Shown piece after piece: positions 2,270 through 59,400 of a stretch of DNA of 64,000 nucleotides. Origin of the DNA: Eledone cirrhosa (lineage: Eukaryota); NCBI GenBank assembly GCA_964016885.1, contig OZ024746.1, positions 74,152,001-74,216,000 of the forward strand. The letters run 5' to 3'. Under the pieces are notes generated by a model. The model saw nothing but the letters and a program-made list of their open reading frames with translations, was not told the origin of the DNA and did no database searches. The stretch's first letter is position 1. Every line of letters starts with the position of its first letter. The position numbers were made by a program, and so were the translations under genes.

Positions 2270-2897
2270 ACCTCTATCTCCACCACTCACGTCCACTTCT
2301 TAGACATCTCCGTCGCCTTCGACCCACCACTCCCTCGTCACCTCCGCCTTCTTCAAACCCACCGACACCCACTCCTACCTCGACTTCACCTCCCACATCT
2401 TCACAGCCCCACCACTCCCCTCCTTCAAACGCGCACGCAATCTCCGCACCCTCCTCGTCCGCAGCTCCCTACCCCCCCGGTTCCCTTCCCTTTTCCAGGC
2501 CTCGCTGCAACACCTGTCCCCACATCACCAACACCACCACCTTCCAGGGTCCCAACGGCCACTCTCTCTCTCTGTCCGGCACGCCTTCCGCTGCACCTCC
2601 ACCAACCTAGTCTATGGACTTCGCGGCACGGAGTGTAGCGCAACCTACGCCGGACAGACTAGACGTCGCCTGGCGGACCGTTTTACCGAACACCTACGAG
2701 ATATTCGTCTCGGCGGTAGTTCCCCCATCGCCCGCCACTTTGGCTCCCCTGGACATTCCGGGCATCACCTCACAGTCTGTGGCCTGCTCCAATGACACGG
2801 TACACCCACCACCCTTCTCAAGGTCGAACAACGCATCATCTTCACCCTACAGACCCACACTCCCCCCGGCCTGAACTCGCCAACCCTATTCCTTTAG
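2265..2897 (+). pseudogene. PLE reverse transcriptase C-terminus, Cys linker and GIY-YIG endonuclease (frameshifted, internally deleted)
   Basis: Across frames: HVHFLDISV...FFKPTDTHSYLDFTS / FKRARNLRTLLVRS / RCNTCPHI / FRCTSTNLVY...TYAGQTRRRLADRFTEHLRDI...EQRIIFTLQTHTPPGLN. The Cys linker and the LxTxxPxGLN end are typical of Neptune-group PLEs. Confidence 0.9.
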
Positions 2898-4347
2898 CTT
2901 CGGACACCCTGTTCCCCCCACCACACACACGTATCCCCCACTAACACACTAACACACTCCTCCTTTTCATCGCCCACCCCACAACTAACAATACTAACAC
3001 CCCCACCCACCCCGACCATCCTCCCCAACTAACAATACTAACATCCTTGTCCCCCCTTTTCCCCTATCACGCGCACACCCACCGGTACATATATACACGC
3101 ACTCACACTAACCACACACCCTACTACCACCAATAACCCTCACCCACACATCCACTCACACCACCCCACAACTAATACCACTAACACCCCCCCGACCCCA
3201 CGCACACGAACACACACATCCACCCACACCCACTTACACCACCCACTCTACACATCCTACCACCACTGACCCCCCGCATTCAACCCTTTCCCCACCACCA
3301 GTATACTAACACCCACTAACACCCCCTTCACCACACACACACTCATCCAAACACGCACACACACACCAGTACACCACACTCCCTCCACCATCCCCCACAC
3401 CTCTCTCCTTCTCCCCGTTCCACCCACACCCCTTCACAGAAACACACACGCATCCCACTAATACCTCTATTAATACACGCACTTCCCCCCACACAAACCC
3501 CTCCCACTCCACCTTTCACACCTACCCATCCTCTCCCCTGTCCACCGCACCTCCGCACACACTGACACACCGACTTTCTCCACCTACCATTCTCCCTTAC
3601 TGCTGCAATGCCCTGACCCCCTGACCACCTCTCCGCACACACAGACACACAACGCCCCTCCTGCCTTGACCCTCTGACCACTTCCTGTTGCGCGCGCACC
3701 CAACATCTCCCCTCTTCCGACCAACCCAACCACGGATTACACACATTGGACCTTGCTCCCACGAATCAACTCCATCACAAGGAAAATATCCGGCAGCTCA
3801 CTACACCCTCTACGGAACTACCTTAGGAACTTACCCACGGACATACACTCACAAACATTTTTTATCCCACACGCTACATACATCCACAATACATATAAAC
3901 ACCACACACACGTGCGTACCCCCACATATTTACACACTCAGCCTCCTGAATCCTCTCTCCCCCTCCCCTACCCCTCTGACCCCTCCCCATCTACACACGC
4001 ACACATACACCGACCTACACCCCACCCACACACCTTTTCCTGAACATGGAACCCCGTTCTTCCCCCAACTCTCACATTCACATACAGACACACACACATG
4101 TACCCCTACACACACACACCACCTTTAGCCCTCCCCGCTCGGACACCACGCCTCCTTCTCCCCACTCCACCCGCCACCACCTCTACACGCCCTTCCACCA
4201 CTTGTTTATCTTCATGTTTATTTTTATTTTTTCATATTTATTTTCATTTGTACCACTTCCACAGTTTCCTCTCACCCCCCTTTTTTCTAAATGTCTCTCC
4301 CCCACTCCTCGACACACTCTTGGAACTCTCTTCCACACACACTTTTC

Positions 4348-4379
4348 GCCTGAAGAAGGGCTTATACCCGAAACGTCGT
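4348..4379 (+). ncRNA. Minimal type I hammerhead (family B)
   Basis: CTGAAGA-a-ggg cttata ccc-GAAAC-GTC. Stem III is reduced to palindromic ACGT and stem I is about 2 bp, as in the minimal HHRs described for PLEs. Confidence 0.75.
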
Positions 4380-4463
4380 TCCCCACCACCACCCACTCTT
4401 AAGAGCGTGGAACTAATAAACCTTTGTTCGTACTGCCTCTCTGTTTTGTTCCCGTTCCATTTT

Positions 4464-6351
<1,888 letters not shown>

Positions 6352-8785: not shown

Positions 8786-8826
<41 letters not shown>

Positions 8827-8839
8827 TAACAGATTGAAG

Positions 8840-8886
8840 TTTAAGCAAAGAATCGCTGCTTTCACCCTTAACGAGATCTTCTGAAA
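8840..8886 (-). ncRNA. Hammerhead-like motif with CAGAAGA core (family G) in a 100-bp AT-flanked unit (8821-8922)
   Basis: Minus strand: ttt-CAGAAGA-tctcgttaagggt-GAAA-gca gcgattctt tgc-TT-aaa. Same family as 48554. Confidence 0.6.
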
Positions 8887-8920
8887 GACTTTGGGTTTTA
8901 GTCTTCACATTTATTATTAT

Positions 8921-8985
<65 letters not shown>

Positions 8986-9400
8986 TATATATATATATAT
9001 ATACGTATATTTATATACTTACACACGAACTACTGATCAAATATATATATATATGTATATATATGCTTGTACTTCTGTGTCTATATATGTATGTTTGCAT
9101 GCATGAACGAATACACTAAGCTTTAGATTTAGTAGAATGTACAACCACTGATTCCAGCTATTTGAACTATCGTATATTTTGGTTTCTATTAATTCCCTGG
9201 GGAATTGGTTGGCCAAATGCTTTGCTTAATTGTTTTATTTATTTAAAAAGAAATGTTGTTCTTTCTCTTAGATTTCAGGTATTTTTTGAAAGCAAAGCTT
9301 TGGTGCCTAGAATACTACAGTGGGCCCAGCAATGCTACCGTGGAGCACCTGGAGCTCACTTGCCATTGGGCAACCTGGACAGTCCGCTACTGCCCAAACT

Positions 9401-10594: not shown

Positions 10595-10771
10595 GAACGA
10601 GTAGGACCCCGACGGCTGAGCTCAATCCGTTTCGACGGCTAATTCTGGACGAAACGGCTTGAGCTCAGCCGTCGGGGTCCTACTTGTTCATAATACCCAC
10701 TCTACTAGCCTAAGTATTGAGTACTTTGGTGCGTTATGTTCCATCTGGTTCCTTACCACATTTCCTTCGTT
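10595..10771 (+). mobile_element. Family F AT-flanked unit: palindromic HHR 3' half plus tail
   Basis: Inverted arms at 10595-10689; GAAAC-ggct tgagctc agcc-GTC-gggg. Same family at 24130 and 44758. Confidence 0.75.
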
Positions 10772-11223: not shown

Positions 11224-11379
11224 GTCTCTCCACCACTCTCCTACACACCTTTTGAACTCTCACCTGAAGAAGGGCTTATGCCCGAAACGTCGTCCTCCAC
11301 CTACCCCCCACTCTCCTGAGCGTGAATTTAATAAACATTTATCGTACTGCCTCTCTGTTCTGTCCCTGTTCAATTTTTC

Positions 11380-14053: not shown

Positions 14054-14056
<3 letters not shown>

Positions 14057-14440
14057 AAAGTTCTATTTAAAATTGTTGGGATACAATTTCCTTTCCTCCT
14101 GTCTTTACTTATCTCTTTCTTTTTTTCTCCATGCATCTCTCTCTCTCTCCGATATTTCTCCACGTTTTTTCTTTCTCTCCGTCTTTTTTCTTTCTCTCCG
14201 TCTTTTTCTAATTGTCCTTAACACTATGACTTATTAAAGTTATATAAACAATTCACTATCCAGATGACTTCCCAAAACAATGGTTGCATTTTAATAGGGT
14301 ACGTCAAAGCTTATTTGTAAAACCGTTATATATTGTATTTTGTCTGATGAAGGCATACCATAATTTAATTTGGTATCCCTGAAATATGTATAATGAAATA
14401 AATATGGTTTTATAAATATAGTTTCCATTTATTAATATCG

Positions 14441-14442
<2 letters not shown>
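14054..14442 (+). mobile_element. Family C PLE pseudo-LTR unit with inverted tail at its 5' end
   Basis: Homologous to ~28100-28490; 14054-14086 is the reverse complement of the family tail (28548-28578, 42535-42563). Confidence 0.8.
14338..14398 (+). ncRNA. Type I hammerhead (family C)
   Basis: ttttgt-CTGATGA-aggcatacca..tggtatccct-GAAA-tatgta-TA-atgaaa. Confidence 0.85.
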
Positions 14443-14497
<55 letters not shown>

Positions 14498-24131: not shown

Positions 24132-24330
24132 CGAAGGAAATGTGGTAAGGAACCAGGTGGACCATAACGCACCAAAGTACGCAATACTTAGAGTAGTAGA
24201 GTGGGTAATAGGAACGAGTAGGACCCCGATGGCTGAGCTCAAGCCGTTTCGACGGCTAATTCTGGACTAAATTTAGTCCAGAATTAGCCGTCGAAACGGC
24301 TTGAGCTCAGCCGTCGGGGTCCTACTCGTT
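24130..24330 (-). mobile_element. Family F unit with 118-bp near-perfect palindrome (24213-24330)
   Basis: Axis at 24271/24272 (ggactaaa|tttagtcc) with one mismatch; each arm carries GAAAC-stem III-GTC. Confidence 0.85.
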
Positions 24331-24439: not shown

Positions 24440-24593
24440 ATGTGTGTGTGTGAGTGTATGTGTATCTTTGTGTGTGCGTATATATATATATTGAACAATG
24501 AAAACCAAGGGTGAATTTAGGGTTTAATTAGTTCTACAATCGTTTTGGAAGATTGATAGACCAGGATAAATCGATTGAGTAACTAATTGCTAT

Positions 24594-24985
24594 TAATTGT
24601 TTCTACTTTTAGCACAAGGCCAGCAATTACCCAGTGCATTACTGGTACTTTATTTTATCGATCCCGTAAGGATGAAAGGCAAAGTTAACCTCGGCGGGAT
24701 TTGGACTCAGATCATAAAGGGGCATAACTCTTTGCTGCAAAGCATGGCGTCCGACCCTCTACCGATACTGCCAATCATACAGCTTCATATTATTAGTTTG
24801 GATGTGGATTGGCAGTATCGGTAGAGGGTGGACGCCATGCTTTCCAGCATAGTAACGTCCCTTTACGATCTGAGTTTAAATCCCGCCGAGGTTAACTTTG
24901 CCTTTCATCCTTACGAGGTCGTTAAAATAAAGTACCAGTAATGCACTGGGTAATTGCTGGCCTTGTGCCTAAAGTAGAAACAATT
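24594..24985. mobile_element. Head-to-head pair of SINE family 1 (- 24594-24775; + 24803-24985 with 15-bp TSD)
   Basis: TSD attattagtttggat at 24789-24803 and 24983-24997. Confidence 0.9.
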
Positions 24986-25204
24986 ATTAGTTTGGATATA
25001 ATAGATCCATCGAGTCATCTTCAAGCACTAGTCGTTGTGTTTAGATTGCATTGGTCAACCAATATATAACTGTAACTCGTATGAATGCTCAACCAAATCT
25101 AATATAATGATATCCCATTAAAAAATAAACACTAGATATTTTACTTCTATACTATATGGAATATTAACAGTGTTATTGGACTCACCATAGTCAAATAGAG
25201 ACAA

Positions 25205-25252
<48 letters not shown>

Positions 25253-25263
25253 CCCGGAATAAC

Positions 25264-25307
<44 letters not shown>

Positions 25308-25311
<4 letters not shown>

Positions 25312-25757
25312 TTAATATAGATGAGATTCTACAGGACTAGAACTGTTTCATTCTTTAGAAATTATCAGGAATCTGGCTTTCCAAAAGTAAATGTTGTGGT
25401 ATTTATATCTTTTGAGGTGGTAGGAGAGGGTGGGGAGTGGGATGGGTGGAGGTCATTCGTTGAAAGAAAAGGGAATTCATTAAAAGCTAATTCTTTGAGG
25501 CTATAATTTATATTTAGAGTGACAAGGGCAGAAAGAATTCTATAAACAAGTTCAGAATGGAGTGCCACTCCTTATTTTTAAGTATCTCTTAAGCTAACAA
25601 TGCCTATATTTCAGGTGTATATAAGATGGTTGTGGGTCGGTCATGGTTGATGGATTTAAAGAAAAGGGAAATTCTTTAAAAGCTAATTCTTTAAAGCTCT
25701 ACTTAGAGTGACAAAGGCCAAGAGAATTCTATAAACGAGTTCAAAATATTGGGTGCC
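25308..25757 (-). mobile_element. Family E PLE-derived unit with HHR at 25324-25374
   Basis: Reverse complement of 36426-36750. Minus strand: agattc-CTGATAA-tttctaaagaat-GAAA-cag ttctagtc ctg-TA-gaatct. Confidence 0.8.
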
Positions 25758-26144
25758 TATCATATCATTTATAAAACCATATTTATTTCGTTATATATAT
25801 TTCAGGGATATCATATTAACAATATGTTATGCCATCTTCAGACAAAATACAATATAAACAGTCTTATAAATAAATAGATACGACATACCTTTCAATCACC
25901 TTGCACTTGGGAGGTTGATTTGGTAGTAAAAAATATTGTGGATAGTTGTAAAAAGAAAGAGATAAAGAGAGAAAGAAAGAGAAACGAAGAAAAAGAAGAA
26001 ATGCATGTGACTAAATAGAGGGATATAGAAAGATAGATAAAGAGAAGAACTTCATGTAAAGAAACAGAGAAATATATATAGAGAGAGGAAAAAAGAGAAA
26101 GAGATAGATAGAGAAATTTGGAAGTTGAGTATCGGTTGATACAT

Positions 26145-26175
<31 letters not shown>

Positions 26176-27145
26176 GCTCTAGTATTAATGTAAAGAGAGA
26201 TGTATGTAGTTAAGAGAGAAAATAGCCGTTATATAGAGAGAAAAAAGAGAAACAAGAGAAAATGAAAAAGAGAAAACGAAACATAACCAGACATAAACGA
26301 TGCAGAATTTAAAACCGCTATGTTTTATCCGTAGAAAATATTAGTTCGTATAAAACAGGCATTATAATGTAAGTACCAGTATTCATGAATGAGACATGTA
26401 TCTATAATGTGTGAAAAGTAATGATCTTATGTCTAGTTTTAAAAAATTCATATGTTTATATCATAATTATAAACAAACTCCCAATTCACACGAAAACATT
26501 CTCATTATGCTATAAAAATTCAAGTATACATATATGTGTGTATATATACACATATACATATAGAGTCTATATTAATTTTAACAATACTATTCTTGTCTTT
26601 ACTCTACCTGATTGTCGATCAAGCAGAAATAGAGAACAGATTTCAATATATTAATAAAAATAAAAATAAAAATAAAAATAAAAATAAAAATATCAGAGAC
26701 AAGAAAATAAATAAATAAATAAACAGAAAACTAAAACATTTAATATTAAAAATAAAAAATATAAAATATTAAAAAATATTAAAAAATAATACAAATAAAA
26801 CACAGAGATCAGCCTTTCAAAGTTAATTGACAATATATTGCCAAGATCATCATAAGCATCAGAGTCGAAACAGATAAAACAAAGATTGTTTACCAAATCC
26901 TGTCTAGCAGAAATCATTCCAAAAGTTTAGGATACCCATTTGGTCTACATATGTTCTTATATATAATATAGAAGTTTATCTAGTTTAAAATTTAATTCGA
27001 TATATTTGGAGCATCAGCTTTTAGGGTAGTTTAATTATTCATGAAGAATGTTTTAATAAAAAGAATGTTTTAATAAAAAGAAGAAATCGAAAGATTTATC
27101 GGCTAGTTTCATAAATAATTACAAATCAAATCAAAACAAACATAA

Positions 27146-27706
27146 TTACATTTTAAATTTAAATTTATATTTAAACGTTGAGTTCAATCTATGTCTGCAG
27201 CAACTGAATAAATTTGTCCGTAGATTAAGGGAATTTTTAGATTTTAGTATAAAGAATATCTCCTCCGCACAGAGGTCACATGTCTCAGAGGATGAATTAA
27301 AAGGAATCCCCCTTGAAACTATATTCCAAGTCGTCGAATATCTAACGTTATCATGCCTAAGTTGCCAGAGTACGCCTGATAGTGCTGTTGAAGATTTTTT
27401 GGATGGATCTGTGAAAGAATTCTTGTGGTTGTTATAGCGAAGTTTAAATTCCGTCGATGTAGAACCAACGTAGTTAAAAGAATTAACGTCCGTTTTAACA
27501 TTACAGTTGTATATTATATTTTTAACTAAGCAGTTGTTATTTAACGGACATTTAGATCTATCTCTACAGTTACATTTGTTAACTTGGATATTATTTATGC
27601 TATTATCGCTAGGTTTTAAGTTCCTGTTATTTATTCTATTAATATTTTGCGCTAAATTTTTGGTGGATGAGTAGGTTAGTTTTATACTATGTCTATTGAA
27701 AATGAT
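27146..27706 (-). CDS. Naiad-type PLE GIY-YIG endonuclease domain (5'-truncated ORF)
   Basis: IFNRHSIKLTYS...CNCRDRSKCPLNNNCLVKNIIYNC...YVGST..EFKLRYNNHKNSF...TALS..LWQL...W...CDLCAEE...LNLRT.LFSCCRH. Confidence 0.88.
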   Translation of the reverse strand: MIFNRHSIKLTYSSTKNLAQNINRINNRNLKPSDNSINNIQVNKCNCRDRSKCPLNNNCLVKNIIYNCNVKTDVNSFNYVGSTSTEFKLRYNNHKNSFTDPSKKSSTALSGVLWQLRHDNVRYSTTWNIVSRGIPFNSSSETCDLCAEEIFFILKSKNSLNLRTNLFSCCRHRLNSTFKYKFKFKM

Positions 27707-27710
27707 AGAT

Positions 27711-27923
27711 AATGATAAACAAATTAAACAAAACAACAACTATTTTAATTATGGCCACAACCTTAACAACTATAATAGAAAGCATTACAATAATTCCAAA
27801 AGCCATAAAAGAAATAGAACTAGGAATATAATATGGTTTGCCCCCCTTTCTCACTAAACATTAAAACCCACATTGCTAAACTATTTTTTAAAGCTCTCGA
27901 TAATCGCTTCCCTAGGTATCACT
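27711..27923 (+). pseudogene. Inverted fragment of the same PLE ORF (RT-EN linker)
   Basis: KRNRTRNIIWFAPP/FSLNIKTHIAKLFFKALDNRFPRYH aligns to RNRNRRVTWYNAPFNLQIKDNIAKKF..ILEKNFPPNH of ORF 30423, the segment just upstream of the minus-strand EN piece. Confidence 0.85.
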
Positions 27924-28384
27924 CAATTCTGCATCGTTTATGTCTGGTTATGTTTCATTTTTTCTTTTTCATTTTCTCTTGTTTCTCTTTTTTCTCTCTA
28001 TATAACGGCTATTTTCTCTCTTAACTACATACATCTCTCTTTACATTAATACTAGAGCTAAATAAATAAATAAATAAATAAATAAATGTATCAACCGATA
28101 CTCAACTTCCAAATTTCTCTATCTATCTCTTTCTCTTTTTTCCTCTCTCTATATATATTTCTCTCTGTTTCTTTACATGAAGTTCTTCTCTTTATCTATC
28201 TTTCTATATCCCTCTATTTAGTCACATGCATTTCTTCTTTTTCTTCGTTTCTCTTTCTTTCTCTCTTTATCTCTTTCTTTTTACAACTATCCACAATATT
28301 TTTTACTACCAAATCAACCTCCCAAGTGCAAGGTGATTGAAAGGTATGTCGTATCTATTTATTTATAAGACTGTTTATATTGTA

Positions 28385-28446
28385 TTTTGTCTGAAGATGG
28401 CATAACATATTGTTAATATGATATCCCTGAAATATATATAACGAAA
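28385..28446 (+). ncRNA. Type I hammerhead (family C); inverted twin at 25786-25847
   Basis: ttttgt-CTGAAGA-stem II-GAAA-tatata-TA-acgaaa, overlapping AATAAA. Confidence 0.8.
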
Positions 28447-28608
28447 TAAATATGGTTTTATAAATATAGTTTCCATTTATTTAATATCATAAATATACTC
28501 CAAATACTTGTTGAGTGCTTTTATATCAGTTATAAATATTTACTCGTTGTTAACCCAACAATTTAAATATAACTTTCCATGTATATATATATACATATAT
28601 ATATATAC

Positions 28609-29133: not shown

Positions 29134-29547
29134 TTTAGGCGTCACGGTTGGTTGAGCATGTCTAAGGACTACTAATTGACCCTATCCAAAGCATCAATTG
29201 TTATGCTATTTTTATAAATGATGAAAATAGCATTTTCTAGTAATCATCACCATCAACATCACTTTTATTATTATTATTGTTCTTGTTGTTGTTAGTGGTC
29301 GTAGTCATAGTCATAGTAGGATTAATATCCCATTATTATTGTTCATTTAGCTTGGGTTTGAATTTATCAATAAAATTCTTTTCTTTGATTTTTCTCTTGA
29401 TTTCACTTGGGCTGTGTAATTTGTACAATGGGAATATTACTAGAAAATGCTATTTTAATCACTTCTAAAAAATAGCAAAACAATTGATGCTTTGGATAGG
29501 GTCAATTAGTAGTCGTTAGACATGCTCAACCAACAGTGACGCCTAAA
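29134..29547. mobile_element. MITE with ~110-bp terminal inverted repeats
   Basis: tttaggcgtcac.gttggttgagcatgtctaa...tagtaat / attacta...ttagacatgctcaaccaac.gtgacgcctaaa around a ~190-bp AT-rich core. Confidence 0.8.
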
Positions 29548-30270: not shown

Positions 30271-30410
30271 GTAATAATAATAAAATTGAAGACTAAAATC
30301 CAAAGAGGGCTCGATAAGGAAAATATATATCAAATATATAAGAACCGTAGAGCAAATATTTATTAATCTGTTATTTTAATCTGTTATTTTAATCTGTTAT
30401 TTTAATAAAT
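30271..30410. mobile_element. Family G tail fragment with triplicated aatctgttatttt(t)
   Basis: Matches 48443-48540; flanked by (AT)n. Confidence 0.75.
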
Positions 30411-30422
30411 ATATATATATAT

Positions 30423-31701
30423 ATGGTAGTAGTAAATTTCCTAGATATAACTTTAGACTTAGCTACGGGTATCTACCAACCTTACCATAAACCCAACCAA
30501 AACTTACACTACATACACTCACAATCTAATCACCCTAAATCTATCCTTAAAAACCTTGCATATAATATATCACTTAGAATTTCTAACCTTTCTTCTAACC
30601 AAGATGTATTTGATAAAAATGCGACCTTCTATAACGAAGCTCTAGATAGAAGTGGCCACAAAAATAGATTAGAATATATACCTTCTACTAAAAATACTAT
30701 AAACATACAACCTAATATTACCAACAAACACCAAATGAAAAGTACACACCTAAATGCCACCCACACTATACCCCAAAATACCAACAACTCTTCTAATATA
30801 AAGTATAGTAACTCTCAAAAAACTACTCATCATACAACTCTAATAAATGTTAATAATAAAACTCCTAATAAACAAGATAAAACACCTAAATCTACAAATC
30901 TAACTAAAAATGTACGTGGTGAGATCATTAACATTAATCCTCCTAGTAAACATCACGATACAACCTATAAAAATAATAAACAACATAGAAACCGTAATAG
31001 ACGAGTTACTTGGTATAATGCCCCATTTAATTTACAAATTAAGGATAATATTGCTAAAAAATTTGTTTATATCCTAGAGAAAAACTTCCCGCCAAACCAC
31101 AAATACCATCAAATCTTAAATAGGTCTACAGTTAAATTCTCATACTCAACAACAAATAACATAAAACAAAATATAAGTGCCTATAATGCATATAAATGTA
31201 AGAATACCATAAGTATACCACCAATACATCAAACTAACCATAATATCTCCTCAAATACAGAATTAACGAAAGGTTGTAACTGTAGAAACAAAGCAAACTG
31301 CCCATTAAAAGGAAATTGTCTTGTTAACAACATAGTTTATAAATGTAATGTTAAAACTAAAGATTCTATTTGCTCATATATAGGAGCTACTTCTAACAAT
31401 TTTAAGGTAAGGTTTAATACCCACAAACATAGTTTTAAAAATGCCGCACTGGCTAATACAACATCTCTAGCAGAAAAAAATCAATAGTTATAAAAATAAG
31501 AATATAGAATATGATATGACCTGGAGTGTGCTCAAAAGAGCCACCCCTTATCAAAATAATAGAAATGAATGTAGATTATGTTCCCAAGAACTATTTGAAA
31601 TAATGAAATCTAAGGATATCCTATTAAATAAACGACAGGAATTAATTATATCGTGTAATCATAAACTAAGAAAAACATTTAAATATTATAAACCTAATTA
31701 A
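30423..31701 (+). CDS. Naiad-type PLE polyprotein, 5'-truncated (RT thumb, N/T-rich insert, GIY-YIG), one +1 frameshift at A7 31474-31480
   Basis: VNFLDITLDL..G.YQPYHKPN...YIH.QSNHP...LSS...YNEAL.RSG...CNCRNKANCPLKGNCL..NIVYKC...YIGAT..FKVRF..H..SF / TWSVL..ATPY..CRLC..E...LLNKRQE..SCNH. Confidence 0.92.
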
Positions 31702-39595: not shown

Positions 39596-39901
39596 TTGTT
39601 ATACTTTGGGAGGGTCATGTTGCCAATAAGAAACACACGCACCAGTTGCTTTCACTTCAATTTATTATAATAAATTTATAATAAATTTATAAATTTATAA
39701 ATTTCTGGTTGGTTGGTTGGTTCCACAACCAGATAGTAGTTGCTTATATATTGTCATAGTTCTTTCGTCACACACTCTGTGACCTCTTCAGTGACTGGGG
39801 ATTCCTTTCTTTGTTTCTGTGCCTCTCCTTTGTTCTGTCCTACATATCGGTTTCAACACACGATTTCAGATAAAGAATCTTGCTAAATAAATTCAGAAAC
39901 G

Positions 39902-39904
<3 letters not shown>
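39596..39904 (-). mobile_element. Family D unit with HHR at 39753-39795 and inverted tail at 39844-39904
   Basis: Minus strand: gtca-CTGAAGA-g-gtcaca gagtg tgtgac-GAAA-gaac-TA-tgac. Confidence 0.85.
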
Positions 39905-40333
<429 letters not shown>

Positions 40334-42161: not shown

Positions 42162-42565
42162 ATATTAACAAATAAAAACCATATTTATTTCATTATACAT
42201 ATTTCAAGGACAACAAAGCAAATTATGGTGCGCTTTCATCAGATAAAATATAATATAGATCAGTTTTATAAACAAATATTGATATACCCTTAAAAGAATG
42301 CTTCCAACAGACATGGCCGCATTCTTTTAAGGGTATCTCAATATTTGTTTATAAAACCGATCTATATTATATTTTATCTGATGAAAGCGCACCATAATTT
42401 GCTTTGGTGTCCTTGAAATATGTATAATGAAATAAATATGCTTTTATAAATATAGTTTCCATTTGTTAATATATTGTATTTTTACTCCAAAAATTTGTTG
42501 AGTGCTTTATATCAGTTATAAAAATATTTGCTTGTTGTATCCCAACACATTAAATATAACTTCTA
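42158..42565. mobile_element. Family C head-to-head foldback with two HHRs (42188-42248 -, 42372-42432 +)
   Basis: ~145-bp inverted arms around a ~17-nt spacer; ttttat-CTGATGA-...-GAAA-tatgta-TA-atgaaa. Confidence 0.88.
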
Positions 42566-44144: not shown

Positions 44145-44147
<3 letters not shown>

Positions 44148-44693
44148 CGTTTCTGAATTTGTTTAGCAAGATTCTTTATCTTAAAACGTGTGTTGAAACC
44201 GATATTTTATACTTTGGGAGGGTCATGTTGCCAATAAGAAACACACGCACCAGTTGCTTTCACTTCAATTTATTATAATAAATTTATAAATTTAGGAATT
44301 TATAAATTTCCGGTTGGTTGGTTGGTTCCACAACCAAATGATTGTTTATATATTGTCAAAGTTCTTTCGTCACACATTCAGTGACCTCTTCAGTGACTGG
44401 TGATTCTTTTCTTTGTTTTTGTGCTTCTTCTTTGTTTTTTTAACAATAAAACCAGATGGCGTAGGAAAGAAAAAAGGAGAGGCACAAAAACAAAGAAAAG
44501 AATCCCCAGTCACTGAAGAGGTCACAGAATGTGTGACGAAAGAACTTTGACAATATATAAACAATCATCTGGTTGTGGAACCAACCAACCAACCGGAAAT
44601 TTTTAAATTCCTAAATGTATAAATTTATTATAATAAAAGTGAAAGCAACTGGTGCGTGTGTTTCTTATTGGCAACATGACCCTCCCAAAGTAT

Positions 44694-44700
<7 letters not shown>
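44145..44700. mobile_element. Family D head-to-head dimer with two HHRs (44355-44397 -, 44509-44551 +)
   Basis: ~220-bp inverted arms; gtca-CTGAAGA-g-gtcaca gaatg tgtgac-GAAA-gaac-TT-tgac; (AT)n on both sides. Confidence 0.9.
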
Positions 44701-44759: not shown

Positions 44760-45012
44760 CGAAGGAAATGTGGTAAGGAACCAGGTGGACCATAACGCAC
44801 CAAAGTACTCAATACTTAGTGTAGTAGAGTGGGTAATAAGAACGAGTAGGACCCCGACGGCTGAACTCAAGCCGTTTCGACGGCTAATTCTGGACTGGGT
44901 CCAATCCTGGACCCAGTCCAGAATTAGCCGTCGAAACGGCTTGAGCTCCTGGACCCAGTCCAGAATTAGCCGTCGAAACGGCTTGAGCTCAGCCGTCGGG
45001 GTCCTACTCGTT

Positions 45013-45014
<2 letters not shown>
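44758..45014 (-). mobile_element. Family F palindromic unit with internal ~41-bp duplication
   Basis: Axis ggactgggtcca-atcc-tggacccagtcc; cctggacccagtccagaattagccgtcgaaacggcttgagct occurs twice. Confidence 0.85.
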
Positions 45015-45611: not shown

Positions 45612-46369
45612 GGAGTAAATGACAAAAGTATTATGACTACTAATAAAACCTCTAAGAATACAATAGAGGGAGGCTTTCATTCACCAGTTACTTTAAAAGA
45701 TAGACGTTATCTATTGCGAAGGAACTGAAAGCCAAGAAAAATTTGAATATTTCCCTTAATCTTTTAGTGTCTAATGGCTTCCCATGTAGATTTATCTCTT
45801 TTCAAGAACCCACTTGGTTCAAATCGTAAGCTTTTTCTTCAGCTAAAAATGAGTAGAAATTTATATATTAATTCAGGACAAAGGAAAGTGGTTTATTTTA
45901 CCTCTTTAATTCGCATTTTTATTCGTTTGTTTGTGGCATTCTACTTATAAATGTTTTAGAAAATCATAAGTGATATCGTGTATTTGATTTCTATATTATG
46001 AAGGAGGCACATAGAAAATAATTCACTGTAACTACACACACACACACACTTACTATCACACACATATTTAAAGCCTTGCTTTGCATTGAGCCTTCTTGAC
46101 TGGTTAGAAGCTATTAATATTAATCACAAACTAAACCGTATCTGAAATAGCTGCTCTTGTTTGCATGCTGCGCGTTCGTCAGTGACGTAATCAATCAAAT
46201 GATGAAAATGTATGCTCAAAATAGGGTATATTAGAAAATCTCTGTTATGCTTAATATAGTTCTAAACATAGTGTATACGCTTTTAATTTAATTACCAATA
46301 TTTAAAGTCTTCTGTTATTTCCTCAGTATAGAAAAATACAGAATGCTTTTACATGTTTTTAGGCTTATT

Positions 46370-47434
46370 GACCAGTATTCAGGTGACAGGTACGCTATAT
46401 ATAAACGTGGTTGGCCGAAGAAATATGTGACCTGGTGACCATTATTCAGGCAACAGGTAAGCTATATATAAACGTGGTTGGCCGAAGAAATATGTGATCT
46501 GTTAACCATTATTTAGGCGACAGATAAGCATATATAAATATGGTTGACCTAAGAAAAAGTTGACCCGATGACCATTATTCAGGCGCAGGTAAGCTATATA
46601 TAAATCCTGTTGGCCTAAGAAATATGTGACCTGGTTAACATTATTCAGGTGACAGGTATGCTATATATAAACGTGGTTGGCCGAACAAATATGTGACCTG
46701 GTGACCATTATTCAGGCGACAGGTAAGCTATATATAAACGTGGTTGGCCGAAGAAATATGTGACCTGGTGACCATTATTCAGGCGACAGGTAAGCTATAT
46801 ATAAACGTGGATGGCCGAAGAAATATGTGACCTGGTGACCATTATTCAGGCGACAGGTAAGCTATATATAAACGTGGTTGGCCGAAGAAATATGTGACCT
46901 GGTGACCATTATTCAGGCGACAGGTAAGCTATATATAAACGTGGATGGCCGAAGAAATATGTGACCTGGTGACCATTATTCAGGCGACAGGTAAGCTATA
47001 TATAAACGTGGTTGGCCGAAGAAATGTGTGACCTGGTGACCATTATTCAGGCGACAGGTAAGCTATATATAAACGTGGATGGCCGAAGAAATATGTGACC
47101 TGGTGACCATTATTCAGGCGACAGGTAAGCTATATATAAACGTGGTTGGCCGAAGAAATATGTGACCTGGTGACCATTATTCAGGCGACAGGTAAGCTAT
47201 ATATAAACGTGGTTGGCCGAAGAAATATGTGACCTGGTGACCATTATTCAGGCGACAGGTAAGCTATATATAAACGTGGTTGGCCGAAGAAATATGTGAC
47301 CTGGTGACCATTATTCAGGCGACAGGTAAGCTATATATAAATGTGGATGGCCGAAGAAATATGTGACCTGGTGACCATTATTCAGGCGACAGGTAAGCTA
47401 TATATAAACGTGGTTGGCCGAAGAAATGTGTGAC
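46370..47434. repeat. 67-bp minisatellite, about 16 copies
   Basis: Unit gaccattattcaggcgacaggtaagctatatataaacgtggttggccgaagaaatatgtgacctggt. Confidence 0.97.
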
Positions 47435-47805
47435 TTGCCAATACACGCATCCCAATATTCATTCTACTGAAGAAGCATGTCTGTATTGCGTTTCCGAAAA
47501 TGCTCTCAGCCCCACCGTCATAGCCACACGATGTGCTCTTGGCTCTCAAAACGAGAGACTTTTTGAGGAATTTTAAATTTTTCGGAAAACATCAGATGTC
47601 AAAACCTACGATCGTAGTGTTGTGGATTCAATTCCTGGACCGGGATGTATGTTGTGTTCTTAAGCAAAACTCTTCCTTTCACGTTGCTCCATTTTATGCA
47701 GCAAAAACGAGTAGCAGCAGGTGTTAGAAGCTCCAGGTTTGGGACAGACTCCAGATTTTAGAGAAGTCCAAAGACGTCTAGAATAGAGAATGGGTGGCCT
47801 GGAGA

Positions 47806-48112: not shown

Positions 48113-48434
48113 ATAGTTAAAGAATGAAGAGTAACATGGTTGGCTGCACAATAAGGGCTTTATTTAAAGTACTGACAATTGTTTTGTTGATCAGGTGATT
48201 CTAGAGTTCGCTAATCGCTTGAGGTTGCGTCAATCGATCTCCAATACATTGTTTACCACCTGTCAACACATCAGAGTAGGAAGACAGGAGGTAAACAAAG
48301 TATTGGAGATCGATTGACGCAACCTCAGTCGATTAGCGAACTCTAGACACACCTGATCAACAAAACAATTGTCAGTACTTTAAATAAAGCCGTTATTGTA
48401 CAGCCAACCATGTTACTCTTCTTTCTTTAACTAT
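48113..48434. mobile_element. Foldback with degenerate long-stem-II hammerhead (48170-48278 -)
   Basis: ~150-bp inverted arms. Minus strand: tact-CTGATG(T)-gttgacaggtg...cacctgatcaac-(A)AAAC-aatt-GTC-agta, then AATAAA. Confidence 0.7.
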
Positions 48435-48442
48435 ATATATAT

Positions 48443-48657
48443 AGTAATAATAATAAATTTGAAGACTAAAATCCAAAGAGGGCTCGATAAGGATAAATAT
48501 ATATCAAATATATAAGAACCGTAGAGCAAATATTTATTAAAATAACAGATTAAAGTTTAAGCAAAGAATCGCTGCTTTCACCCTTAACGGGATCTTCTGA
48601 AACTAACAAAGTCAATCTGTAAACGATACTTTGCTTAAACTTTAATCTGTTATTTTA

Positions 48658-48662
<5 letters not shown>
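48443..48662 (-). mobile_element. Family G unit with HHR-like motif at 48554-48604 and partial foldback
   Basis: Minus strand: agttt-CAGAAGA-tccc gttaa gggt-GAAA-gca gcgattctt tgc-TT-aaact. Confidence 0.75.

Positions 48663-55469: not shown

Positions 55470-59400
<3,931 letters not shown>

Follow-up and report, generated by a model that had tools for sequence, protein, structure and literature searches.

In the accessible portion of Craig et al. (2021, PMC8557442), EN+ Penelope-like elements (PLEs) carry an inverted 5'-truncated copy and a tail of 30-40 bp, which is found at either end or at only one end, and the mechanism behind their tandem and inverted insertions and the one-sided tail is named as an open problem. 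For rotifer PLEs, self-priming with an antisense template is the preferred explanation in the available part of Arkhipova et al. (2013, PMC3846280). A biochemical view comes from Poseidon, a PLE of Anolis. In vitro, both target strands are nicked and extended, two start sites of reverse transcription bound the tail, and a dimer has been modelled; the later steps are left unvalidated in the main text of that study (Frangieh et al. 2024, PMC11167929). For L1, twin priming and dual priming have been defined, inverted tails included, in the sections available of Meyer et al. (2010, PMC2837659).

How does a locus rich in such insertions compare with these systems? The window analysed here is a stretch of 64,000 nucleotides from Eledone cirrhosa (assembly GCA_964016885.1, contig OZ024746.1, positions 74,152,001 to 74,216,000). 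It is AT-rich with many (AT)n tracts, and the host genome has 3.0 Gb. In a preliminary description of the window, the 3' tail of the element was said to be flipped and joined to the 5' end in several repeat families. For mapping, a fifth family H was added to families G, C, D and E of that description, and a sample of 268 segments was used (1.55 Mb, nearly all on contig C1), which had been picked by G, D or C motifs. A second sample consisted of 190 kb at arbitrary positions on 14 other contigs. Genome-wide copy numbers are exact sequence-pattern matches and not results of a similarity search, where common words are skipped; an unmasked self-BLAST of the window was dominated by (AT)n matches.

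The insertions resemble published EN+ PLEs, as far as the accessible text of PMC8557442 and PMC3846280 describes them, in the partial tandems forming pLTRs, the head-to-head inverted copy, the tail at one end, the (TA)n targets, and an RT with a C-terminal GIY-YIG. The tails here are 60-90 nt in length, compared with 30-40 bp in PMC8557442. Moreover, the pairing of the ends and the insertions flipped in the tail only are counted here, unlike in the available accounts, which ascribe the shape to endonuclease resolution or self-priming and not to priming on both strands.

Element families and their two 3' ends

Judged by protein motifs, families G, C and D are assigned to PLEs. In family G, locus L039 has an open frame of 712 aa with the RT motif YRDD as well as a GIY-YIG motif, YIGLT, at the C-terminus, and its parts follow in the order of inverted copy, truncated pLTR with tail, ORF, and pLTR with tail. 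The G protein also has RWR, DKT, a CxCX5C that precedes the GIY-YIG core, and CxH in its C-terminal part. Family C (L050) has an RT and YVGST, together with Hydra-clade motifs as in G. The proteins of G and C are about 40% identical, so the two are related, and the flipped tails do not come from three unrelated families as had been supposed. Going by the published description, G and C would fit the Hydra clade in RWR, DKT, CxCX5C, C-terminal CxH and (TA)n insertion, whereas the unit lengths here, 3.25 and 3.75 kb, differ from the "generally <3 kb" given for that clade in the accessible part of PMC8557442. Family D has YVDD and YIGET upstream of its repeat. The CxCX5C linker of the Hydra clade is absent from it, and it has CX4CxxC instead, which is the Neptune/Nematis type in the same source. 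A Pfam search and a PDB sequence search with the PLE proteins gave no match, and their neighbours in the Atlas are eukaryotic clusters, some with RVT_1 and GIY-YIG; thus the PLE assignment rests on the motifs and the Atlas. For families E and H, the loci gathered gave no associated ORF. Partial tandems forming pLTRs are present in L039, L034, L047 and L050. Hammerhead-like cores of the form CTGANGA...GAAA can be recognized by eye in C, D and E, with CAGAAGA in G. An Rfam scan of four targeted regions gave no hammerhead match at E<=1, and a scan of the whole window gave only repeat-driven matches among the 150 of 423 matches listed. The window also holds fragments of another PLE ORF (30423-31695, plus strand), 44-54% identical to the G protein.

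All five mapped families have two fixed 3' ends, End1 and End2, which bound the PLE tail. The tail between them is 90 nt in G and in C, 60 nt in D, 68 nt in E and about 79 nt in H. Insertions are flanked by (TA)n on both sides, and (AT)n adjoins 734 of the 793 mapped 3' ends. Apparent clusters of 3' ends at about -590 in G, and at about -795 and -320 in C, lie in low-complexity 3' UTR. Genome-wide, the G tail pattern has 23,879 exact matches. End2 of G is flush with (AT)n in 12,630 exact matches and read through in 12,568, and End1 is flush in 15,048; the numbers for End2 of D are 12,769 flush and 11,581 read-through. Copies terminated at End2 and copies reading through it are thus about equally numerous in both families.

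Flipped tails in the window

The focal G site begins with a (TA)n target tract (8795-8821), which adjoins the 3' end of a tail-less arm on the minus strand (8822-8886, element positions -69 to about 0 relative to End2). After two junction bases (8887-8888) comes a tailed arm on the plus strand (8889-8923), consisting of the last 35 nt of the 90-nt tail up to End1, and then the right (TA)n tract (8924-9017). The tailed arm corresponds to the tail at 48445-48478 in reverse complement, with 34 of 36 aligned bases identical, and the tail-less arm matches 48535-48602 in direct orientation (66/68). About 55 nt of tail is absent between the two pieces. The inverted tail noticed here is therefore real, but its left bound had been put at 8886, about 3 nt too far left. 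The tail-less arm contains the hammerhead-like core with the non-canonical CAGAAGA. Two other G insertions lie in the window. The one at 30271-30408 has the whole tail (to -7), a 21-nt filler and a 21-nt tail-less arm; the one at 48444-48661 is an overlapping head-to-head pair, with the tailed arm reaching to about -90 and the tail-less arm to about -35.

In family C, a tailed arm on the minus strand (14054-14086) consists of the last 33 nt of the tail. It has 4 differences in 31 columns from 28548-28578, but it is identical at 33/33 positions to the tail end of copy L298 of its own subfamily, which bears out the flip. It is joined to a tail-less arm on the plus strand (14087-14443), which ends at End2 and is 97.8% identical to L298 over 357 nt; about 57-60 nt of tail is absent between them. 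A long head-to-head C insertion occupies 25767-28578, with a GIY-YIG region at 27176-27709 on the minus strand and a tailed arm at about 27925-28578 on the plus strand. A lopsided palindrome of family C is seen at 42175-42562, and further lopsided palindromes are at 48113-48434, 40060-40212 and 29135-29546.

In family D, a tail-less arm on the minus strand (39597-39843) and a tailed arm on the plus strand (39844-39903) both start at End2, and the latter is exactly the whole 60-nt tail. This flip is also real, the tail being inverted relative to 44146-44205 with 60/63 aligned positions identical. The copy at 44146-44697 is an overlapping head-to-head pair, with the tailed arm to -234 and the tail-less arm to -255. 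The examples from G, C and D thus share one layout: a short piece from the 3' extreme meets, head to head and without any intervening (AT)n, a longer piece, which has its own 3' end at a more internal position of the element, and both 3' ends touch (TA)n.

The E example has a different structure. A 17-nt stub of the tail end (25250-25266, plus strand; 17/17 to the tail at 58153 ff.) lies between two (AT)n tracts, and it faces a tail-less arm starting at End2 (25309-25743, minus strand) 3' to 3' across 44 nt of (TA)n. It had been listed along with the flipped tails, but it does not belong with them because of the (AT)n on both sides and the 3'-to-3' orientation, and it is likely a separate insertion. 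Could the stub and the arm come from one event around an unmelted target? This was rejected since tail-to-tail neighbours, of which 4/11 are End1+End2, show no rule of one End1 and one End2. Family H is present as three short palindromic insertions (10595-10767, 24134-24330 and 44762-45014), all End1+End2; in this family the arms mostly end about 55-60 nt above End2.

Some other features of the window were seen as well. A large tail-to-tail inverted repeat at 2778-6316 is centred on (TA)n at 4465-4574, with a related end at 11231-11378. It is about 70% identical overall and 85% near the centre, has a CTGAAGA...GAAA core, and is likely a tract that holds a pair of diverged copies from another family. 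A SINE-like family, abundant and about 185 nt long, occurs at 24590-24990 and about a dozen other sites. The two copies at 24590-24990 are head to head, and the second is flanked by a repeat of about 15 nt resembling a target-site duplication. A tandem array at 46368-47437 has a 67-bp unit, about 94% identical.

Pairing of the ends and the RNA template

Is there any rule for which 3' ends are combined in one insertion? The pair count takes head-to-head insertions with both outer ends mapped and leaves out one-arm insertions, which are numerous (136 tailed arms compared with 85 pairs in family G). The automatic caller under-detects arms shorter than about 22 nt and diverged C subfamilies; the C example and the E stub of the window were missed by it and were inspected by hand. 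Also left out were the G copies in L112, a duplicate of L026, and L331/L332, two tail-less arms 10 kb apart that are likely a duplication. In the 1.55-Mb sample, 217 of 221 head-to-head pairs are End1+End2, four are End2+End2 and none is End1+End1 (binomial p about 6e-59 against 50%). The arbitrary 190-kb sample gave 5/5 End1+End2 pairs, two of them with only tail in the tailed arm. As a control, tail-to-tail neighbours, which are likely separate events, are mixed (4/11 End1+End2). One End1+End1 case was found, with its arms separated by a long (AT)n spacer.

The flipped ends are thus real and common by-products of PLE insertion in AT repeats. In 59 of the 217 pairs, the tailed arm ends while still in the tail or no more than 14 nt from End2 (G 35/85, C 3/14, D 7/45, E 2/13, H 12/60), and 32 of these 59 are stops near End2. 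What had been described as a signature of its own is a subclass of head-to-head insertions whose tailed arm stopped early, that is, the short-arm end of the known PLE layout with an inverted copy and a one-sided tail. Inverted tails are neither rare nor inserted separately, though exact adjacency of the two pieces is the less frequent result. Separate insertions sharing an (AT)n tract are seen, for instance in the E example, but independent insertion as the source of the flips in general is contradicted by the missing (AT)n spacer between the arms, by junction coordinates that are mostly unique, and by independent neighbours ignoring the pairing rule (4/11). We consider it exceedingly unlikely, and the same holds for the related proposal that the flips descend from a few master palindromes copied in one pass, to which we return with the edited copies.

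The two pieces had been expected to be adjacent and non-overlapping. This is exactly so for D in the window, but G and C have the gaps given above (about 55 and 57-60 nt), and in the sample the arms overlap in 158/217 pairs (73%). Of the 181 mapped pairs, 99 have a tail-less arm whose upstream reach exceeds that of the tailed arm by more than 10 nt, and in 56 the arms do not overlap. As the general route, fold-back of one cDNA is excluded by these two numbers. In such a scheme, a single cDNA would turn back and copy itself into the inverted arm, or an antisense template would do so, as proposed for rotifer PLEs (PMC3846280, available part). Some junctions lie at short palindromes, among them the G hotspot at -68 with its near-symmetric arms, which would agree with it, and it would also yield shared variants in the overlap. 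However, 56/181 pairs have no overlap to copy from, in 99/181 part of the tail-less arm has no counterpart in the tailed arm, and the edits described below are A-to-G changes of the sense strand whichever arm is read. Self-copying as the source of both arms is therefore very improbable in our judgement, though fold-back may help to fill the overlap after both primings.

The junctions show how the arms were joined. In G, 18/41 insertion-free junctions have microhomology of at least 3 nt, compared with 5.5% in the null, and filler or mismatches are present at 36/77 junctions. Stops at End2 are in modest excess in G (15 against 6.9 expected, p=0.005, for a stretch chosen post hoc), and D, E and H have no clear stop peak at End2. 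Three head-to-head End1+End2 pairs have a filler containing (AT)n (L187:581-626, L187:1119-1159 and L181:4858-4877), which suggests that repeat sequence can be added at the junction. Solo G tails which stop near End2 and are joined straight to (AT)n were seen in L005, L021, L035, L037, L052 and L085; this would be the outcome if the inner copy were of no length, or if the ATAT of End2 served in joining. As a separate observation, the 5' ends of both arms in G, E and H (e.g. at window positions 8886 and 58282) pile up at -57 to -71 from End2. An RNA 5' end, an RT pause and palindromic microhomology are candidate causes; ribozyme cleavage is not supported, the pile-up being on the 5' side of the core and off the predicted cut.

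Then were both arms copied from one RNA? Rare variants common to both arms are far in excess in D (66 against 2.1 expected), C (20 against 0.9) and G (10 against 1.2); the excess is weak in H (3 against 0.9) and absent in E (0 against 0.4). A finer marker was found in family D. Insertion L186 (G000:C1:18413166-18413898) has a dense cluster of sense-strand A-to-G changes in both arms, and a 28-mer from this cluster occurs exactly twice in the genome, once per arm. A search with the L186 pattern brought in further edited D copies. The clusters (L186, L334-L361) have up to about 53 sites within about 400 nt, and each insertion has its own pattern. Pairs with few or no edits in the overlap were left out (L336, L338, L341, L344, L357, L358 and L359), and L351, which has a different structure, was excluded from the pairs and served as a control. 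All of the informative insertions (8/8) share a private cluster between their arms. The numbers of sites shared, in the tailed arm only and in the tail-less arm only are 27/2/1, 11/3/3, 7/1/1, 47/5/6, 5/0/0, 29/0/0, 31/0/0 and 20/6/5. The Jaccard index of the sites is 0.65-1.0 within an insertion, and between insertions its mean is 0.20 and its maximum 0.44. For a second edit pattern, the partner arm matches at 99% and the next match at 86-87%, among 40 scored of 542 candidates.

The A-to-G clusters are likely RNA editing written back into the genome. The edited sites have only a weak bias in the 5' neighbour (G 0.26 vs A 0.34), so ADAR is named here as a putative editor. The private clusters shared by the arms make it likely, for family D only, that both arms were copied from one RNA molecule. 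Early conversion between the arms may also account for the shared edits, as no edits fall in the tails of the edited pairs.

A competing view is dual priming, where an asymmetric complex would hold two RNAs of a single source locus, with priming at End1 on one of them and at End2 on the other. Overlapping arms would then need no strand displacement, the pairing rule and the shared subfamily variants would fit, and the 6-11 arm-specific A/G sites in three edited pairs would be expected from two molecules. But four of the eight pairs have identical or near-identical edits (27/2/1, 5/0/0, 29/0/0 and 31/0/0), searches with two of the patterns turned up no pre-edited source copy, and dual priming would explain neither why the ends are so strictly one of each kind nor why stops at End2 are in excess in G. 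We regard it as improbable. The edits bear on master palindromes too. In the three-arm D insertion L351:1323-2073, the second arm has T-to-C changes instead of A-to-G; such opposite polarity in adjacent arms is expected from a palindromic transcript edited on both strands and copied through, as a master palindrome would be. The eight edited pairs have instead the same polarity and the same sites in both arms. A single RNA primed twice is the reading we continue with.

Start sites and the insertion mechanism

What places the two start sites? Both have 2-5 nt of TAT/ATAT matching the target, in keeping with the AU-rich priming points that had been anticipated. The preliminary description went further and held that the (AT)n ends, being self-complementary, anneal at any AU-rich place of the RNA, the inner start being opportunistic as in L1. 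The short matches at both start sites, and the (AT)n next to 734/793 mapped 3' ends, are what this would produce. However, the inner site has one fixed position per family, and longer (AT) runs nearby are almost unused: an 8-nt run in G holds 1 end compared with 120 at End1 and 124 at End2, and the counts are 0 for a 9-nt run in C, 1 for a 7-nt run in D and 0 for an 8-nt run in E. In addition, the PLE studied in vitro starts at sites without homology to the cut DNA, according to the accessible text of PMC11167929. Self-complementarity thus permits priming but does not place the start, and opportunistic annealing has little chance of being the right explanation.

Another signal was found next to the sites. 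In G and C, a hairpin RCTC...GAGY begins 6-9 nt downstream of both ends; at this distance it also follows End1 in H and End2 in E. In read-through copies it follows End2 in 58/85 cases for G, 55/57 for C, 22/29 for E and 59/73 for H, and in 0/65 for D; by chance alone, it is expected in about 0.4-1% of 5-nt windows. In four contexts the hairpin is part of the predicted fold, but at C End2 and E End2 it is not. The hairpin likely places the start sites, and it may do so by binding the PLE protein.

Putting these together, we think it probable that insertion in (TA)n uses two fixed sites 60-90 nt apart, that both nicked strands prime on one RNA, and that a flip results when the outer copy stops early. 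That two primings from opposite strands use the same RNA had been proposed before, and it is supported here by the pairing rule, the junction microhomology, the shared variants and the shared A-to-G clusters. The steps may be as follows. A dimer or two-site complex would nick both (TA)n strands, and each nicked 3' end would find its start site by pairing with 2-5 nt of TAT/ATAT there; protein on the RCTC...GAGY hairpin 6-9 nt downstream would place the sites in G, C, E and H. The outer copy would then stop in the tail, stall near the inner primer, or read through and displace the inner copy, and the cDNA ends would be united by host end-joining, with microhomology or filler at the junction. 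Since 158/217 tailed arms run past End2, strand displacement or a second-strand route is needed. Beyond this, we lean slightly towards a broader view, that this is the default route of EN+ PLEs: a dimer would grip two copies of the RNA hairpin and give each nicked strand one start site on one RNA, and the outer polymerase can displace the inner cDNA.

How does this mechanism relate to twin priming? As in the available sections on L1 (PMC2837659), two cDNAs from opposite nicks are joined head to head with microhomology, and a very short outer piece yields an inverted tail; the two inverted fragments are each attached to the target by the 3' end. The differences are that the inner site is fixed here and opportunistic in L1 twin priming, that there is no poly(A), that the head-to-head layout is the norm here and a minority in L1, and that the arms overlap in 73% of pairs where L1 twin priming has an internal deletion. 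Non-overlapping fragments make up only 59/217 pairs, and the variable inner annealing site of L1 is replaced by a fixed End2. Therefore the mechanism works like twin priming but lies outside the strict L1 type, because of the fixed sites and the frequent overlap. With Poseidon (PMC11167929), it shares both strands being nicked and extended, two start sites bounding the tail, AT-rich targets and a predicted dimer. In the main text of that paper a start-site difference between the strands is not reported and head-to-head products are not addressed, so the one-of-each rule and the single-RNA evidence are additions to it. The shape, the tail and the two in-vitro start sites are already published. 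Our literature search, within the text accessible for each paper, gave none with a PLE pairing rule or a twin-priming model for PLEs, and papers on edited retrotransposon copies, by title and the start of the abstract, contained nothing on edits shared by both arms.

These results give a testable model for the unsolved insertion mechanism of PLEs, and the pairing rule, the tail-only class and the shared edits make specific predictions for the existing in-vitro PLE system. If the default route is true, the tail, the inverted pLTRs and the tail-only flips would be explained by one mechanism, and fossil marks of RNA editing would serve as single-molecule barcodes in the genome. The families are abundant, with 12,000-46,000 exact motif matches each, and thus the process has seeded many thousands of palindromes in the genome.
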